From IMG/VR virus record IMGVR_UViG_3300045988_129218: a stretch of DNA of 64,000 nt; one strand, written 5' to 3'. The translations under genes were made by a program, and so were the position numbers. Under the pieces are notes generated by a model, which was given only the letters and a program-made list of their open reading frames with translations, was not told where the DNA came from and made no database searches. Origin of the DNA: a virus. Below, piece by piece: positions 3,449 through 50,470 of the stretch (position 1 is its first letter; each line of letters starts with the position of its first letter).

Positions 3449-5521
3449 ATGGCACTTTTCATGCCGACGAACATCACGCCCTCCACGCTGGGAGCGTTGG
3501 GAAACGGGACGGTGGATGCCTCCCGCGATATGACCGTGACGTGGCAGGTGGACGGGCAGAACGCCATGACGGCGTTTGAGATAAAAATTTACGCAAATAC
3601 GCCGGACAGCACACAGCTGTACGATACAGGGAAGAAGACGGACGGATGCCCGTTTTACGGCAGGGATGCAGGCGGCGATGTGGTGTTTTTCAGCTACACG
3701 ATACCGGCGTCGGCGCTGGCGGCGGCAGGGATCGCCAACGGGAACAGCTACAAGCTGCTGATCACACAGTGGTGGACGGGCAGCGCCAGCGTGACACAGC
3801 AAAGCGCGTCGGTCTTTATCTGCCGCAGCGCGCCCACGCTGGTCATCAACAGCTTTTCGCGGCCTGTGACCGGGAAACAGATGACGTGGACGGCCAGCTA
3901 TGCCCAGGCGCAGGGAGACCCACTGATATGGGTACGCTGGCAGCTGGCGGCAGCCGGCAGCACAGACGAACCGCTGTACGACACCGGCAACATCGCCACG
4001 GCACAACTGCAGTTCAGCTACGACGGTCTTTTCGCGGGGCAGCAATACGCCGTGCGGTGCCGCGTGGAGACGTCCAACGGCGTTACGGCGGATACGGGAT
4101 GGGTGCAGTTCGCGGTGCAGTACGATACTACCGGCTACAGCGGAGCGGTGGAGACGTGCGTGAAGCGGAGACAAAGCGGCGTGCTGGTATCGTGGCCGGG
4201 GGCCTATGACATACCCGGGACGGCCAGCGGGAATTACAGGGTCAGAAACGGGAAGCTGGATCTGCCGGCGGGGGCAAACGTAACATGGGACACGGTGACG
4301 GGCGCGTCCATGGCGATCTCGCCGGCGTGGAGCGCCGTATGGCGCGGGACGGTGACGGCGTTTCCGACGGGGCTGTTTTCGCTGGGAGCGGCGGACGGCC
4401 AGACGGTGGCGGTATCCGTATCCCGGACGGCGCTGACAGTGACGCAGGGCGGCGCGGAGGTGGGCCGCATCAGCGCGGCGTTTGTGCCGGGTGACGATCT
4501 CACGGTGGTGCTCCGCAGCGGTAAGTTGTATGTGCGCCGGCGGTATGAGACGGGGTTGTTTCCCGGCCAGAGCCTTTATGCTGCCAATGATCTCTTTCCG
4601 GTGCGCAGTCAGTACAGGATCGCGACTTATGCCGCCGATATGCAGCTGATGGAAACGACAGTGACGAGCGTGCAGCTGACAGGCGCGCAGACCTGCGATT
4701 ATATGTGGATAGAGGGCGGCGAGCTGCCGGATGCCACGCTTTCGCGACTGATGAGCGCCGCCGGATACACGCCGGAATTTGGCGGGGACACGCGGTTTCT
4801 GGCGGACTTTTCGGAGGATCTGCGGGGCGGCAACGTGGCGGCAGATGAGGCCATAACGGGCTGGTCGGTATACCGCAGGGCACAGGACGCCGCCGCGCTG
4901 GTACATGTGGCGGACACGGGATACGAGGAGCGCAGCGTCATAGATTGCGGCGCCGTGTCGCAGGAGACGTATGTGTATTACATATTTGGCCGGTCGGCCT
5001 TCTCGTTTGCCACCACGGCACTGGCTAGCCAGCCCGTGACGGTGTGCCTGTGGGACTGGACGATACTGGCCTGTGCGCAGGAGAAGAGCGGCGCTTTTCA
5101 GGTGGAGGACATTTTCCGGTTTTCGCTGAACGTGGAGAGCGGGACGATAAGCAACAACAATAAGCCGGCGCTGCTGGAGAACTTTACGCGGTATCCCACG
5201 GTGCAGATGTCTTCCCAGCTTTACAGGAGCGGTACGCTCAGCGGATATCTGGGAGAGGTGGATCAGAATGCCGAATACCATGATTCTGCAGCCCGGCTGG
5301 AGCAGTTGATGGCGTTGTCGCTGACAAGGCAGACGCTGTTTCTCAAGAACCGAAAGGGCAGCCTAATGCGGATATTCCTCAACGGGGAGATCACCGCGCA
5401 GACGCAGGATGCCACACGGCAGCAGGCGCTGATATGCGCGGTGCCGTGGTGTGAGACAGGAAATGCCCGCGACGCACAGCTGCTGATACGGCAGGGAAGT
5501 GCGCTTCGCGCCGCAATGTGA
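3449..5521 (+). CDS. Tail-associated / minor structural protein
   Basis: 690-aa ORF following the distal-tail-like gene. Call rests on synteny. Confidence 0.5.
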   Translation: MALFMPTNITPSTLGALGNGTVDASRDMTVTWQVDGQNAMTAFEIKIYANTPDSTQLYDTGKKTDGCPFYGRDAGGDVVFFSYTIPASALAAAGIANGNSYKLLITQWWTGSASVTQQSASVFICRSAPTLVINSFSRPVTGKQMTWTASYAQAQGDPLIWVRWQLAAAGSTDEPLYDTGNIATAQLQFSYDGLFAGQQYAVRCRVETSNGVTADTGWVQFAVQYDTTGYSGAVETCVKRRQSGVLVSWPGAYDIPGTASGNYRVRNGKLDLPAGANVTWDTVTGASMAISPAWSAVWRGTVTAFPTGLFSLGAADGQTVAVSVSRTALTVTQGGAEVGRISAAFVPGDDLTVVLRSGKLYVRRRYETGLFPGQSLYAANDLFPVRSQYRIATYAADMQLMETTVTSVQLTGAQTCDYMWIEGGELPDATLSRLMSAAGYTPEFGGDTRFLADFSEDLRGGNVAADEAITGWSVYRRAQDAAALVHVADTGYEERSVIDCGAVSQETYVYYIFGRSAFSFATTALASQPVTVCLWDWTILACAQEKSGAFQVEDIFRFSLNVESGTISNNNKPALLENFTRYPTVQMSSQLYRSGTLSGYLGEVDQNAEYHDSAARLEQLMALSLTRQTLFLKNRKGSLMRIFLNGEITAQTQDATRQQALICAVPWCETGNARDAQLLIRQGSALRAAM

Positions 5522-12996: not shown

Positions 12997-13068
12997 AGGG
13001 CGCGGTCGGAGTCGAACCGGCGTTTCCCTGCGGTCAAACAGGGCGTTCTGCCGTTGAACTACGCGCCC
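12997..13068 (-). tRNA. Aberrant tRNA: 8-nt anticodon loop UUUGACCG, C50.A64 T-stem mismatch, no encoded CCA
   Basis: GGGCGCG/CGCGCCC acceptor. GTTC/GAAC D stem. CCCTG-TTTGACCG-CAGGG. T loop TTCGACT. Confidence 0.5.
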
Positions 13069-33277: not shown

Positions 33278-34429
33278 TCTCTTTTGTTCTTGGTTTGTGC
33301 CTTGGGCGGCGGGAAGTTTCTCTGCGGTACGGTAGAATTTCGCCATCTTGTTTTCCGCTTTCAGACGGTCTCGCTGGGCAAGGTGCAGGTAAATGTTATG
33401 GACGGTAGAACTATCCGACCATCCTCCCATGCTCATGACTTCGATTTCCGAAAGGCGCAGGTGGTAGCCAAGGGATGCAAAGGAGTGGCGCAAGCAGTGC
33501 TCCGTGATGCTGGGCAGTCCTGCTTTTTCAGCGATAATGTGTATGTGCCGGTTAATGGTGCTGGGCATTTGTCGTACAATGTAGCCGCTCTCCCCTTGCA
33601 GCTCAAGCAACTCTCTAAGGCGTGGGATCATGATTGGAATTATTCTGGTGGACTGCTTTGTTTTGTTGCGCCTTTTGAAAACCTCTTTGTTGTGCTCGTC
33701 GCGTACCACAGCGCCGGAAATAAGAATGTTGCCGTTCTTGATGTCAAAACTCTCTGGGAAACGCAGCGCCTTAATTTCAGACATTCGCAACCCGTGAAGC
33801 CCCAGCAGCATGGGGATCTCACAGGAATCACCTTTTGCCGCATCGCAAAACGCAATGATCTGTTGCGGGTCAAGAAACTGGCGCTCGCGCTTTTCCGGCA
33901 CAGGGAACAGGACGCGGGGAACCGTCATTTCGTTTGCTTGCATAACGGTAGTCATAAGTCCCCATGCGTTTTTTACGGACTTATCGGCCAGAACGGAAAG
34001 TGCGGCATTGATCTCCGCTTGCCAGTTGACTGGCGTGCTTATAGGCTTTTGCATAATGTCCTGAAAGCGATTTCGCTGAATGATTCGGTATCCTCGTATA
34101 GTTTCAGGGGAAAGAGACTCGGAACGGTCAGCAATATATTGATCTATGGCCTTAGACCATGTTAAGGCAGGCAGTTTCTTTTGCTGCTCCACAAAACCTG
34201 CGCGGACGGCTTTTGCTTTCGCAATACAGCGGTCTTTTGTCGTTTCGGTGACAGATCGCTTTTCCGCAGCGAGATATATGTGCCAGCTTCCAGAGGGGAG
34301 CTGCTTAGGCTCCGGGACTTTGATAATACCGTCCTTTTTGCGCTCCCGCACCTGCTTCTGGCCGCACCAGGGGCAGAACGTAGCGTTGTCGGGGACTTCG
34401 CGCTTACAGGACTTGCACTTCGTTGACAT
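33275..34429 (-). CDS. Tyrosine integrase with N-terminal zinc ribbon
   Basis: CKSCKREVPDNATFCPWCG. LRMSEIKAL, HCLRHSF, GGWSDSSTVHNIYLH catalytic signature. Confidence 0.9.
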   Translation of the reverse strand: MSTKCKSCKREVPDNATFCPWCGQKQVRERKKDGIIKVPEPKQLPSGSWHIYLAAEKRSVTETTKDRCIAKAKAVRAGFVEQQKKLPALTWSKAIDQYIADRSESLSPETIRGYRIIQRNRFQDIMQKPISTPVNWQAEINAALSVLADKSVKNAWGLMTTVMQANEMTVPRVLFPVPEKRERQFLDPQQIIAFCDAAKGDSCEIPMLLGLHGLRMSEIKALRFPESFDIKNGNILISGAVVRDEHNKEVFKRRNKTKQSTRIIPIMIPRLRELLELQGESGYIVRQMPSTINRHIHIIAEKAGLPSITEHCLRHSFASLGYHLRLSEIEVMSMGGWSDSSTVHNIYLHLAQRDRLKAENKMAKFYRTAEKLPAAQGTNQEQKR

Positions 34430-47226: not shown

Positions 47227-47494
47227 ACAGCATTTGAGCCGGGATGACCGCATTTTCATGGACGGCAAGCGCAGAGGTACGCAGGAGTGCATGGACATGG
47301 TGGCAATGGCGCTCATCGACAAATGCGGCTGGCACGTCCAAGAGGAGACAGCGGACAGCCGGGACACGCAGAGCATTGCGTATCTGTACGAGTGCCTTGA
47401 GAAGCTGGCGGAGGAGATAAACGAGGGCCGCATCAAGCGGAAGCACATCAAGGACGTGCTGAAGGATGAGTGCGGCGTTGTGTTTGGAGATTAG
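47219..47494 (+). CDS. Hypothetical protein (91 aa)
   Basis: GGAGGA RBS before the ATG at 47219. Confidence 0.45.
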   Translation: MGKQHLSRDDRIFMDGKRRGTQECMDMVAMALIDKCGWHVQEETADSRDTQSIAYLYECLEKLAEEINEGRIKRKHIKDVLKDECGVVFGD

Positions 47495-47506
47495 GAGGTG
47501 ATTTAG

Positions 47507-49273
47507 GTGAAACATTTAGGCGATATTACGAAAATAAATGGGGCAGAGATTGAACCCGTTTGGTGTATTACAGGTGGTTCACCTTGTTAGACAGGATCTA
47601 TCCATCGCCGGGAAACGCGCCGGTTTGGCGGGAGCGCGAAGCGGCCTGTTTATGAAGCAGGTGCGCATCGTAAAAGAAATGAGGGAGGCGGACAAAAGGA
47701 ATGGACGGACAGGTGACATGGTCAGACCTCGGTATCTCGTGTGGGAAAACGTGGTCGGAGCCTTTAGCAGCAACAAAGGAAAAGACTTCGCAGCCGTGCT
47801 CGAAGAGATCATCAAAATCGTCGAGCCGGAAGCCCCCAGTATTGAAGTGCCCGAAAAGGGCTGGCCTACCTGGGGGGGTACCACGATGAGGTGGGAGGAC
47901 GATGGAGCGTGGTGTGGCGAACTCACGACGCGCAATACTGGGGAGTGCCCCAACGCCGTCGTCGTATCTCGGTTGTCGCAGATTTTGGAGGAGACACCGC
48001 ATCCGAAATACAATTTGACCGCAAAAGCGTGTCAGGGGATATTACGGCGAGCGGAGCGGCGGGGGAAGGACTTGCCGAAGCTGCTGAAAGAGGTTTTAAT
48101 CCGGCAGGCGGGGACTGCATGACGGCTTGGGATTGCCAAAGCAAGCGCATTTTTGACACAAACGGAAAATCTCCCACACTGCAAGGCGGCGTTGGTGGCG
48201 GCGTGAATAATCCTGCCATATTTGCGGCTATTCCCATCAACGACAAAGCCACCAGATGGCAGGGCGGCGGAGAGAGCCGCAACCACGATGGCAGCGGCAA
48301 CGGTCTTGGCATCGGCAAAGAGGGAGACCCATCACCCACGCTGACCGCTGGCGACCGTCACGGGGTAATGTGCATGACGCCTTGGGACGCACAGAGCCAG
48401 CGCGTATACGACGGAAACGGCGTTTCGCCTACGCTCAGTTCCCGTGAAAACAGTGGTCTGAACCGCGAAGCCGTGCTATGTGCCGGGTTTAAGGCCGGAC
48501 AGGGCGCACAGGCGGGCGGCATCGGGTGCGGTGAGGAAGTGTCGCCCACGCTGGCGGCGGCACCCAGCGGGACGAACCAAACCCCGGCAGTGGTGGAGCT
48601 GGACATGACACACGCCTGTGACGTCATCCGCGAGTGCGGGGAGCAAGTGCCGGCATTGCAGGCGAAAATGGGCACGGGCGGAAACCAAGTGCCGCTGACA
48701 TACCAAGATGTGACGGGTACGCTTTCCCCAGGCGCTCATGCCGGGAGCTACAACGGGCAGGACGCATACAACGATATGCTGGTGTGCGGGGCAACACCGG
48801 ATGTGGCACACGCGCTGCGGGCAAAGGCTGCCTGTGCGTACCGGGAGGACACGGAGACATACCCGGTGCAGAACATGGTGGTGCGCCGATTGACACCGTT
48901 GGAATGTACCCGCTTGCAGGGATACCCGGACGGATGGGTGGACATTGGCGACTGGACGGATGAGAAGGGCAAGAAACACAAGGACGCGGACAGCCCGAAG
49001 TACAAGGCGCTGGGCAACAGCATCGCCCTGCCCTTCTGGGACTGGATGCTGCGGCGCATGGCACGGTATTTGCCGGAGGGGGCAACGCTTGGGAGCTTAT
49101 TTGATGGTATTTCGGGCTTTAACGTCTGCTGGGCGAGAATACACGGAGCAGAGTGCTGCCGGTGGAGTTCTGAAATTGAGCAATTCCCTATTGCTGTGAC
49201 CAAAAAGCATTTCGGCGATGAAAAGTCAGGTGAGACGGGTGACTGGGAGATTTTTTCGGGAGGAATGACATGA
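47507..49273 (+). pseudogene. Cytosine-5 DNA methyltransferase, circularly permuted motif order, interrupted twice (three reading frames)
   Basis: AGGAGGTG-N8-GTG start. GGSPC-TAG (47588), then QDLSIAGKRAGL in the +1 frame. ENV motif. G7 tract at 47872-47878. QYWGVPQRRRR in the -1 frame. Four SPTL segments. RRLTPLECTRLQGYPDGW. GNSIALP. Then LFDGISGF and SEIE at the C-terminus. Confidence 0.7.
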
Positions 49274-49716
49274 TAAACGACGCTTTGTTTTCCAGCGACA
49301 AGAATTTCTGGGAAACGCCGCAAATGCTCTTTGATGAGCTGGACGCGGAGTTCCACTTCACGCTGGACGCTGCCGCCAGTGATGAAAATCACAAGTGTGC
49401 GCGGTATTTCACGCAAAGCGATGATGGTTTGCGGAAAAATTGGGGGGGCGAAACGGTGTTTTGTAACCCGCCCTACGGGAGCAAGGAAACCGGGCTGTGG
49501 ACGGAGAAGTGTTACCGCGAAGGACAGAAACCAGGGACAACGGTGGTGCTTCTGATCCCCGCCCGGACAGACCGTGCCAGCTTTCACGACTATATTCTGG
49601 GCAAGGCAGAGATCCGCTTCCTGCGTGGTAGGCTGAAATTTGAGCTGGACGGAAAGCCGATGGGGACGGCACCGTTTCCCAGCATGATTGCCATTTGGCG
49701 AGGAGGAATGACATGA
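49270..49716 (+). CDS. Phage Dam-family N6-adenine DNA methyltransferase
   Basis: ETPQMLFDELDAEFHFTLDAAAS and VFCNPPYG. Confidence 0.8.
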   Translation: MINDALFSSDKNFWETPQMLFDELDAEFHFTLDAAASDENHKCARYFTQSDDGLRKNWGGETVFCNPPYGSKETGLWTEKCYREGQKPGTTVVLLIPARTDRASFHDYILGKAEIRFLRGRLKFELDGKPMGTAPFPSMIAIWRGGMT

Positions 49717-50012
49717 CACGCGAGGAGATCATAACCGCGCTGCGGTGCTGTGCAGACATTGATGGCGAATTTGAGTGCAGTACAACCTGCGCGTTTTTCA
49801 AAACGAGCGACGAACTGGGCGACTGCTGCACAAAGAAAAATGTTGCCGCCGCTGACCTGATCGAGAACCAGCAGCGGCACATCGAGGCACTGATGAAAGC
49901 CAACGACAGCCTGAAGGACGCCATTGCACGGCGGGATAAGCAGATAGAGGACATGAATCAGGGCATGGCACAGCTGGCAAAGGCTGTGGCGGTGAAGGAG
50001 GAACAGAAATGA
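49713..50012 (+). CDS. Hypothetical protein (99 aa)
   Basis: ATGA overlap. Cys-rich N-terminus and coiled-coil C-terminus. Confidence 0.45.
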   Translation: MTREEIITALRCCADIDGEFECSTTCAFFKTSDELGDCCTKKNVAAADLIENQQRHIEALMKANDSLKDAIARRDKQIEDMNQGMAQLAKAVAVKEEQK

Positions 50013-50470
50013 GCCTTGAGGTTTGCCCGATGACGCTCAAGGAGGCGAACGCCTTTGTGGAGCAGCACCACCGGCATCATAAGCCAGTGGTGGGACACAA
50101 GTTCTCCATCGGCTGCACGGACGGAAAGGAAATCGTGGGCGTTGCCATTGTGGGCAGACCGGTGAGCCGGCATCTGGACGACGGATGGACGCTGGAGGTC
50201 AACCGGTTATGCACAGATGGCACTCACAATGCTTGCTCTATGCTGTACGCCGCTGCTTGGCGGGCGGCACGGGCGATGGGCTACAAACGACTTGTGACCT
50301 ACATACTAGACAGCGAAAGTGGCACAAGTCTGAAAGCCAGCGGGTGGAAATGCGTGGGACAGGCTGGCGGCTTGCGGTGGACAGGAAAGCGCAGACCGGA
50401 GGTCGATCTATATCCGGCGCAGATGAAAATTCGGTGGGAAAAGGAGGAACACGATGGATCGGTTGACTAA
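50009..50470 (+). CDS. XF1762-family-like (GNAT-fold-like) protein
   Basis: LKEANAFVEQHHRHHKPVVGHKFSIG...VGVAIVGRPVSRHLDDGWTLEVNRLCTDGTHNACSMLY. Family recalled from memory. Confidence 0.5.
   Translation: MSLEVCPMTLKEANAFVEQHHRHHKPVVGHKFSIGCTDGKEIVGVAIVGRPVSRHLDDGWTLEVNRLCTDGTHNACSMLYAAAWRAARAMGYKRLVTYILDSESGTSLKASGWKCVGQAGGLRWTGKRRPEVDLYPAQMKIRWEKEEHDGSVD

Follow-up and report, generated by a model that had tools for sequence, protein, structure and literature searches.

The gene examined here lies at positions 47,507 to 49,273 of a 64,000-nucleotide stretch of viral DNA (IMG/VR record IMGVR_UViG_3300045988_129218; the whole stretch is called the window) and is the anti-restriction C5-methyltransferase gene of an Oscillospiraceae prophage, the activity of its product being predicted. 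It belongs to a large, hitherto undescribed family of circularly permuted C5-methylases of gut phages. The explanation that we favor, with a probability of about 0.6, is that a permuted prophage methylase is produced through programmed recoding at a UAG stop codon plus one further base (UAG-N, or TAG-N in the DNA), that a second gene is nested within the methylase gene in another reading frame, and that a G tract is defective in the window copy.

The features that the original prediction had read from the letters, namely the Shine-Dalgarno sequence, the GTG at 47507, the four nucleotides TAGA, the run of seven Gs (G7), the four SPTL segments, GNSIALP, LFDGISGF and SEIE, were all verified on reading. 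From the GTG at 47507, frame a reads VKHLGDITKINGAEIEPVWCITGGSPC and then meets the in-frame TAG at 47588-47590. When TAGA (47588-47591) is deleted, this leader joins frame b, which reads QDLSIAGKRAG...VWENV...EKGWPTWGG, and after G7 frame a picks up again as YHDEVGGRWSVVWRTHDAQYWGVPQRRRRI, or in a longer reading as YHDEVGGRWSVVWRTHDAQYWGVPQRRRRISVVADFGG. The window copy contains no stops or frameshifts beyond TAG-N and G7. In the profile comparison that had been suggested with the original prediction, the repaired protein matched Pfam PF00145 in three stretches (E = 7e-30), and the full set of C5-methyltransferase motifs was found (I, II, III, IV with PC, VI with ENV, VIII with QxRxR, IX and X).

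Circular permutation and the gene family

The intact relative P0006 was compared with solved structures using phmmer. Residues 59-112 of M.HhaI corresponded to residues 5-58 of the query (motifs III and IV), residues 154-170 to 141-157 (motif VIII), residues 270-289 to 457-476 (motif IX), and residues 15-57 to 528-572 (motifs I and II). The N-terminal GDITKI is motif III and aligned to M.HhaI 59-64, the N-terminal HLGDI corresponds to M.HhaI 57-61, and the C-terminal ...KKHFGDE corresponds to M.HhaI 50-57. Because the chain starts at the equivalent of M.HhaI residue 59 and ends at that of residue 57, it is rotated cleanly, and the break falls between motifs II and III. The original prediction had described a permuted order of motifs IV to X followed by I and II, with a break point unlike that of M.BssHII. 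The permutation and the distinct break point are borne out by the M.HhaI alignment, while the start at motif IV is not, as the order is III to X and then I and II. The further idea that the end of the protein is homologous to its start was abandoned, since the two termini are adjacent segments of M.HhaI (50-57 and 57-61) and not duplicates.

In terms of its topology, the family is almost certainly a natural rotation of type B, in which the N-terminus aligns just past motif II and the C-terminus closes with motifs I and II. Motif I was found upstream of the gene in none of 55 intact alleles, so that all 55 are permuted. The window copy as written is not a single uninterrupted polypeptide, for which TAG-N would have to be passed and an eighth G (G8) supplied, but L004, L014 and P0006 each are. 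Relatives that are intact and equally permuted, for which a search had been proposed with the original prediction, are abundant; the gene is therefore not the remnant of a tandem duplication that has no intact permuted relatives.

Circular permutants of M.MpeI and M.SssI were built by Pósfai, Kiss and colleagues, and those of class B, in which the chain newly begins between motifs II and III and the native termini are joined, were the most active topology (PMC5944983). The same report describes a REBASE search, made in 2018, in which 27 natural permuted C5-methylases were found, all of them broken in the variable region, and class B was absent (PMC5944983). The gut-phage family is thus the natural permutant type that was reported missing in 2018, and our literature search for natural type B permutants, including the years after 2018, returned no report. 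Like the engineered class B proteins, the family is broken between motifs II and III and has its native termini joined, but those proteins are laboratory constructs, whereas the family is natural, is a large phage family, and carries several target-recognition segments. M.BssHII, M.Alw26I, M2.Eco31I, M.Esp3I and M2.BsaI are natural permuted C5-methylases of type H (PMC5944983). These enzymes are likewise natural permutants, presumably via duplication and truncation, but they break in the variable region (IX-X-I...VIII), and the window gene, with the order III-X, I-II, does not have the type H arrangement.

The same permuted gene is intact in hundreds of gut-phage contigs with Oscillospiraceae hosts. 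Four gut-virome contigs with the same arrangement in differing genomic contexts were retrieved by megablast, and in one of them (L004) the gene is one intact open reading frame (ORF). The protein database search returned thousands of relatives; a start of the form M-x-HLGD...GGSPCQDLS was present in 55 of the best 120 clusters, and 53 of these 55 end with motifs I and II. The hosts named among the genome matches were Oscillibacter sp. 1-3 (a cultured isolate), Dysosmobacter, and metagenome-assembled genomes of Oscillospiraceae and Clostridia. The window gene has four SPTL-type segments, while its relatives, which are 508-927 aa long, have 2-5. Multispecific phage C5-methylases of the SPR/phi3T type carry tandem target-recognition domains (TRDs) with one specificity each. 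The number of SPTL-type segments suggests that the enzymes of the family are probably multispecific as well.

Three connectivities were observed in the family. The first is a single long chain accompanied by a small nested ORF, the second is an alpha protein (motifs III-VIII, about 200-230 aa, very common) with an overlapping beta ORF, and the third consists of rare proteins with the order IX-X-I...VIII. The alpha/beta form differs from the long chain by one base in a G-rich run, ...RIRGG/CDGGGKG... (L001 at about 4490-4560; about 25 loci), and to judge from its sequence this run is a second, candidate homopolymer-like switch point in the family. The rare proteins of the third kind (P0432, P0457, P0470 and P0501, 320-363 aa) begin at motif IX and have the order IX-X-I-II-III...VIII. 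At L223 (3972-5063), the IX-first order is accompanied by a TRD remnant upstream in another frame and by a nested +1 ORF. Such IX-first relatives may be intermediates of a duplication-and-truncation route to the permutation. Mobile insertions were also noted at motif VI. In P0076, an intein (Hint and LAGLIDADG domains) lies inside this motif, between ENV and GAFSS, and a different insertion, ENVPYALKHIRYVMNRKQLC..., directly follows ENV in the Oscillibacter sp. 1-3 copy and in several viral contigs (the loci being L217 at about 5050-5400, L117, L067 and L134).

The TAG-N cassette and its decoding

A search of viral contigs with a degenerate GGSPC-TAG-N-QDL pattern matched at least 120 contigs. 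In an unbiased sample of 80 loci, which were fetched by peptide patterns unrelated to the TAG-N site, 25 alleles (31%) carried the site and are called recoded, 55 were intact, and none was in any further state. A stop after the Cys codon is also present in L001 and L003 (TAGC and TAGA) and in the distant L009, and the cassette that contains it was found in the cultured isolate Oscillibacter sp. 1-3.

Over about 100 nucleotides, the cassette combines a strong ribosome-binding site with a GTG start, 27 AT-rich leader codons, and the near-invariant sequence GGT GGT TCA CCT TGT TAG, after which comes A, C or T. GTG is the start codon in all 115 recoded alleles and is preceded by GGAGGTGAT or GGGGGTGAT, in the context GGAGGTGATTTAG-GTG or GGGGGTGATTTAG-GTG, while the starts of the intact alleles are ATG (44), ATA (5) and GTG (6). 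The G+C content at third codon positions of the leader is 0.30 in recoded and 0.67 in intact alleles, and that of the next 300 nucleotides is 0.53 and 0.58, respectively. The last five leader codons are near-invariant and are minor codons of the family genes (15%, 15%, 6%, 23% and 27%), and the Cys codon before TAG is always TGT. The third-position information reaches 1.5-2.0 bits in these five codons only, with no synonymous conservation downstream. The element GGTGGT, 6 nt from the P-site codon, is near-invariant in recoded alleles and absent from intact ones. TAG itself ends only 1 of 89 genes in the family, fewer than either other stop codon, and in the 115 recoded alleles it is followed by A in 84, by C in 28, by T in 3 and by G in none.

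Selection was evident on both sides of the site. The 46 unique leaders have a pS of 0.75 and a pN/pS of 0.34 (0.28 in intact alleles), with peptides diverged down to about 50% identity, and the leaders are open from GTG to TAG in all 115 recoded alleles; the two other frames have a pN/pS of about 1 and are full of stops. Downstream of the site, recoded alleles have a pN/pS of 0.43 and intact +1-frame ORFs of 508-687 aa in 43 protein clusters, and many contigs have a +1 frame that extends to the proper C-terminus. The stop and the frame change are thus conserved in diverged homologues, with purifying selection before and after them. When the window was compared with the intact L014, the 3′ part of the upstream gene was 92-93% identical, the ribosome-binding site and leader 64-69%, and the next 280 nt 96-98%. 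The cassette is a discrete, portable module with sharp borders.

TAGA had been regarded as a lesion in the original prediction. The same TAG-N is present in 25 of 80 relatives, behind a leader under purifying selection, and a neutral lesion of a pseudogene predicts none of the features of the cassette in distribution, codon use, selection and modularity; TAGA is therefore not a lesion, and we consider it quite probable that TAG-N is a selected, functional feature. In at least 43 of the top 120 clusters, public gene calls of recoded alleles begin at a +1-frame ATG (47538 in the window, MGQRLNPFGVLQVVHLVRQDLS...). Because of this spurious start, the database proteins lack motif III and the catalytic Cys.

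How the ribosome passes the site is less certain, and the chances that UGU-UAG-N is a signal for programmed recoding, either by a +1 shift or by a 4-nt hop, appear evenly balanced. Translation would start at the GTG behind the strong ribosome-binding site, cross the 27 AT-rich codons, and meet UAG and one base after the Cys codon. In a +1 shift, AGA, AGC or AGU would be read and Arg or Ser inserted between the catalytic Cys and Gln, while a 4-nt hop across UAGN would restore the exact PCQ. In either case, the likely effect would be that expression of the methylase is held low or made conditional. In E. coli, A and C after a stop codon are weak termination contexts, and G and U are strong ones. 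Replacement of AGA by AGG, which would leave the +1-frame residue unchanged, is never seen, whereas the change from Arg to Ser is; this indicates selection on the base after the stop and not on the residue. This fourth-base pattern argues mildly for a hop, in which the triplet would be left untranslated. At a UAG for which no release factor 1 (RF1) is present, stalled ribosomes can shift or skip by -3 to +19 nt, typically with the help of rare codons, weak P-site pairing, and a Shine-Dalgarno-like element six bases upstream (PMC6207430). At the window site, UGU pairs with tRNA-Cys via a G-U wobble, and GGUGGU ends six bases upstream of UGU. A literature search for frameshifting in a C5-methylase returned no report.

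Other candidate features were tried and rejected. Pairing of the start region with the recoding site does not separate the two allele types (duplex energy of -12.1 for recoded and -11.0 for intact alleles), and a mini-hairpin CUUG[UUAGN]CARG around the stop was dropped because of the exceptions L218 and L220. Reassignment of TAG (code 15) was rejected, since the frame still shifts by +1 after TAG-N. A suppressor or quadruplet-reading tRNA of the phage was also considered, but the loop of the candidate (12997-13068, UUUGACCG) is not complementary to UAGA, and this tRNA lies about 20 kb outside the prophage.

The nested frame and the G tract

Past the G tract, the unshifted frame of the window reads SRLSQILEETPHPKYNLTAKACQGILRRAERRGKDLPKLL up to a stop at 48120-48122. 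A codon alignment of 86 full-length alleles was used to analyze this frame. In 80 of the 86 alleles the +1 frame has an ORF of 138-192 codons, while the median of the longest open stretch in the +2 frame is 53. Synonymous diversity in the main frame is 0.50 in codons 0-30 after the recoding site, 0.2-0.3 in codons 30-110, and 0.02-0.12 in codons 140-190, and the lowest synonymous diversity coincides with the lowest main-frame amino-acid identity. Before the nested ORF, the per-site differences at main-frame positions 1, 2 and 3 are 0.15, 0.06 and 0.47, and the identities of the +1 and main frames are 0.48 and 0.93. After motif VIII, the differences become 0.295, 0.162 and 0.179, and the identities 0.78 and 0.61. 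As expected of an overlapping gene, the +1 frame is kept open and the most variable site switches to main-frame position 1. The frame past the G tract had been taken for an alternative C-terminus that would give a short isoform; on this evidence it is instead, with high confidence, a conserved overlapping gene that covers motifs VII and VIII and the linker, with a predicted protein product.

The upstream half of the long form (47701-47889) is open in relatives but has no selection signal of its own, with a +1 identity of 0.61 compared with 0.62 in the +2 control, and the functional start is therefore probably the ATG at 47886. In 93 of 165 alleles, a G-rich tract (GGGGAGGG or GGGGGGG) is followed, after 7 nt, by this ATG. 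This tract is the putative ribosome-binding site of the nested ORF. In P0199, P0215 and P0220, the N-terminal half matches frame c of the window, and G8 fuses both halves into a +1 ORF of about 140 codons.

When the alternative-frame peptide was used in a word-indexed search, only short unannotated ORF calls were returned, and a profile search was needed for the long beta-type proteins. The profile search with the nested protein gave 4622 cluster representatives. In many of these matches, the nested module is the N-terminus of a protein of 340-620 aa that continues in the same frame into the TRDs and motifs IX, X, I and II. Where the nested frame runs on in this way, it would yield a beta subunit, and the enzyme would be made as one or two chains plus the nested module, as set by single-base differences. 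Against PHROGs, the nested protein gave a weak match to phrog_16143 only. We take it to resemble the canonical segment that follows motif VIII (LxxILxxxxxKYxLS).

Split methylases with overlapping frames have precedents. In M.AquI, the split reportedly falls in the variable region, with overlapping alpha and beta ORFs. The activity of M.EcoHK31I depends on a second polypeptide, the beta chain, whose coding sequence lies within that of alpha but in a different frame (PMC2836561). Unlike in these two enzymes, the nested frame of the window covers motifs VII and VIII and the linker, a module before the TRDs, and not motif IX; the module is also either a small separate ORF or fused to TRD-IX-X-I-II, and its role in activity is putative.

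The G tract, which lies over the W-G-G codons of the methylase, was compared first with the closest relative. Over window positions 47400-49400, L012 has no mismatches and one gap, with G8 in L012 and G7 in the window, and L012 has an intact ORF of 578 codons. The gene calls P0001-P0005, from G8 contigs, are likewise of 578 aa and 100% identical. The view that one more G is needed to join the frames was thus confirmed by an otherwise identical natural sequence, and the accompanying idea of homopolymer variation also held, as the tract differs by +1 or -1 among natural relatives. In relatives that carry the flanking landmark, tracts of G7 followed by C or A were in frame in 45 cases and out of frame in 3, tracts of G8 were in frame in 11 and out of frame in 9, and interrupted tracts were in frame in all 38. 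Out-of-frame alleles were therefore confined to uninterrupted tracts (12/68 compared with 0/38, Fisher p = 0.004) and were more frequent in the G8 type than in the G7N type (9/20 compared with 3/48, p = 0.0004). The 12 out-of-frame alleles are G7T, G9T, G8C or G9C, so that G7, G8 and G9 states all exist. Since the +1 variant G8+C recurs in identical form in contigs from several independent samples and sources, real tract-length variants exist. Length polymorphism that changes the frame among close relatives, and that is tied to an uninterrupted tract, is what is expected of a phase-variable gene, and the pattern in these sequences fits slipped-strand switching.

With G7, the main chain of the window passes after WPTWGG into the nested frame, where it terminates at 48122, while neither the short nested ORF (47886-48122) nor its putative ribosome-binding site is affected. 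The missing G is the only defect that is specific to the window copy, and this copy would be off unless G7 reflects a read error or low-level compensation takes place. The pseudogene reading offered in the original prediction can apply at most to this single G, and its TAGA part did not hold. Phase-variable DNA methyltransferases with homopolymer tracts are known from phasevarions (cited in PMC3711429). The window gene is similar in having poly-G inside a methylase ORF, with +1/-1 length differences among close relatives that switch the frame, but it is a phage C5-methylase and not a type III mod gene, and its tract is under the added constraint of an overlapping frame and probably serves as an internal ribosome-binding site. 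A second G7 run over W-G-G codons was noted in the Dam gene downstream (49442-49448); this run keeps the Dam frame in the window and could be another place in the modification module where slippage occurs.

Alternatives, genomic setting and significance

Several results weigh against the explanation proposed here, most of them concerning the decoding of UAG-N. The +1 frameshift of prfB, the gene of release factor 2, occurs at CUU UGA C, and that of antizyme at UCC UGA U. The window site shares with both an early in-frame stop, a weak fourth-base context, a candidate Shine-Dalgarno-like element upstream, conservation in homologues, and a product for which a +1 shift would be needed. It differs from prfB in that the stop is UAG, which is read only by RF1, in that it lies inside the catalytic PCQ, in that the P-site tRNA-Cys (GCA anticodon) cannot re-pair in the +1 frame (UGU to GUU) as a prfB-like shift demands, and in that GGUGGU is 6 nt from the P-site codon instead of 3 nt. 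In the bypass of T4 gene 60, a UAG directly follows the take-off codon and the gap is 50 nt. A UAG after the take-off codon, a short upstream nascent chain, and restoration of the exact protein by a hop, which in the window is proposed, are common to both, but the window gap would be 4 nt, a take-off stem-loop is at most putative, and the landing triplets AGA, AGC and AGU match tRNA-Cys at one or two positions only (AGA at one), which falls short of the match expected between take-off and landing sites. Conserved RNA structure downstream of the site was not found (RNAalifold 0.0 over 90 nt), and upstream there is only a trivial GGUG/CACC hairpin. A +1 shift would also put an extra residue inside the most conserved catalytic motif, a +1-frame GTG 14 nt before TAG in about 95% of recoded alleles makes reinitiation a live alternative, and for every member of the family the case for recoding is one of comparative sequence evidence. 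As to the protein chains, an AlphaFold2 model of P0006 (39-sequence alignment) had a mean pLDDT of 33 and was unusable, so that the fold of the permuted chain is deduced from its motifs and from the engineered permutants, and the nested protein gave no match in Pfam or in a sequence-profile search of PDB.

A further reading, which bears only on the tract and does not conflict with the rest of the explanation, is that G7 may be a homopolymer error of sequencing or assembly and the true state G8. This has a real but smaller chance of being correct than a genuine G7. Tract length is the sole difference from L012 over 2 kb, and the out-of-frame calls cluster in the longest tracts, which speaks for such an error, but an out-of-frame variant that is reproduced across independent samples and sources (G8+C, above) is not readily explained in this way.

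Of the alternatives for TAG-N itself, the one with the most in its favor, though improbable, is a split enzyme, in which a 27-residue peptide ending in the catalytic Cys would be released, the body re-initiated at the GTG at 47574-47576 (MVHLVRQDLS...), and the pieces assembled. This GTG lies inside GGT-GGT, and synonymous constraint starts exactly there, as dual coding predicts. Furthermore, the family is already divided elsewhere into overlapping alpha and beta ORFs, and fragment complementation is tolerated by C5-methylases (PMC5944983). However, L067, L128, L134 and L093 lack any +1-frame start codon from the nearest stop up to the site, in L049 the only one is a TTG located 33 nt upstream, and the GTG at 47574-47576 is not preceded by a Shine-Dalgarno sequence. 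In addition, the strong termination contexts G and U are, respectively, never and seldom seen at the fourth base, whereas efficient termination followed by reinitiation should favor them, and a free carboxylate on the active-site Cys would probably be chemically awkward.

Somewhat less probable again is that the cassette is a heritable OFF allele or a regulatory upstream ORF that gives no active methylase, with ON and OFF states swapped by recombination under host restriction, for example of a methyl-dependent kind. The exchange of a discrete, sharp-bordered module between genes that are otherwise 96-98% identical, the coexistence of both states at roughly 2:1, and the low expression expected from a weak GTG start would all suit such a role. 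A functionless leader, however, should neither hold the residues of motifs III and IV at a pN/pS of 0.34 while synonymous sites are saturated with changes nor stay open in 115 of 115 alleles, the downstream ORFs are intact with a pN/pS of 0.43, and the invariant 15-nt context is not needed for a simple OFF state. Decay of the gene through two independent lesions, TAGA and G7, is very improbable and already contradicted as regards TAGA: the window copy as written does lack a single ORF, with G7 breaking both the main chain and the long nested form, but TAG-N recurs at the exact position in 31% of relatives with no other lesion type there, L012 is intact and identical bar one G, and the window copy has no further stops or frameshifts.

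The coordinates of the features are collected in Table 1. The neighbors of the methylase gene fit a replication and modification module of a prophage. Together, the C5-methylase, the Dam methylase and the Mom-like ORF may give the prophage three consecutive DNA-modification functions. Window positions 1-33000, upstream of the integrase, encode a class-V aminotransferase, a DUF4942 protein, a protein with an LPD25 'large polyvalent protein' domain, and a PAPS-reductase-like protein; this part does not seem to belong to the prophage and may include another mobile element. It also holds a tRNA at 12997-13068 (- strand, Rfam 49 bits) with an 8-nt anticodon loop, for which ARAGORN gives the four-base anticodon 'tgac' and no amino acid. 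Its neighbors in a tRNA cluster are tRNA-Met, tRNA-Gly(tcc) and tRNA-Gln(ttg), the integrase of the prophage lies about 20 kb downstream, and the tRNA could be quadruplet-reading or defective.

Table 1. Positions of the methylase gene elements, the nested frame and neighboring genes in the window
Feature	Position	Strand	Remarks
Shine-Dalgarno sequence of recoded leader cassette	47493..47500	+	AGGAGGTG; read directly
27-codon leader	47507..47587	+	frame a; GTG start to catalytic Cys codon TGT; motif III (GDITKI) and motif IV to GGSPC
Putative recoding signal	47573..47591	+	GGT GGT TCA CCT TGT TAG A; SD-like GGTGGT, Pro and Cys codons, in-frame TAG 47588-47590, extra base 47591
Methylase body, part 1	47592..47878	+	frame b; QDLS (rest of motif IV), motif V, motif VI, to WPTWGG
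Motif VI	47745-47753	+	ENV; frame b
G7 homopolymer	47872..47878	+	over W-G-G codons
Methylase body, part 2	47879..49273	+	frame a in window; VII, VIII, linker, TRD region with four SPTL segments, IX, X, I, II
Motif VIII	47951-47965	+	QRRRR
Motif IX	48884-48937	+	RRLTPLECTRLQGYPDGW
Motif X	49013-49033	+	GNSIALP
Motif I	49097-49120	+	LFDGISGF
Motif II	49169-49180	+	SEIE
Methylase stop	49271-49273	+	
Nested ORF, constrained part	47886..48122	+	MRWEDDGAW...SRLSQILEETPHPKYNLTAKACQGILRRAERRGKDLPKLLKEVLIRQAGTA*; frame b in window, +1 to methylase; stop 48120-48122
Long-form nested ORF, upstream half	47701..47889	+	frame c; severed from downstream half by missing G in window
DnaB helicase, DUF1064 protein, replisome organiser			upstream of methylase
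Dam (N6-adenine) methylase	49270-49716		downstream of C5-methylase
Mom-like ORF	50009-50470		PF25680, E = 3.6e-07; after both methylases
Integrase	33278-34429		

In summary, a permutation that performed best in the laboratory, and that was reported absent from nature in the 2018 REBASE survey, is common in phages of the human gut, and a natural type B family bears on the evolution of the methyltransferase fold through duplication and truncation. A UAG/RF1 counterpart of prfB is described as not known in a review (PMC5009743); if the proposed decoding is true, UGU-UAG-N would be a new UAG-dependent bacterial recoding signal that is short, portable, and easily tested with reporters. We give about an even chance to the full arrangement, in which a portable cassette of about 100 nt would make recoding obligatory at an RF1-read stop and one base after the catalytic Cys, and a nested +1 gene would have a G-rich ribosome-binding site that doubles as a slippage-prone switch of the main frame. 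Annotation is wrong for thousands of genes, in which the catalytic Cys is cut off and the nested gene or beta subunit is missed or only partly called. Recoding, an overlapping gene and a mutable G tract within one 1.8-kb gene may plausibly tune the anti-restriction function, and the locus should serve well in studies of phage control over an enzyme that may be toxic.

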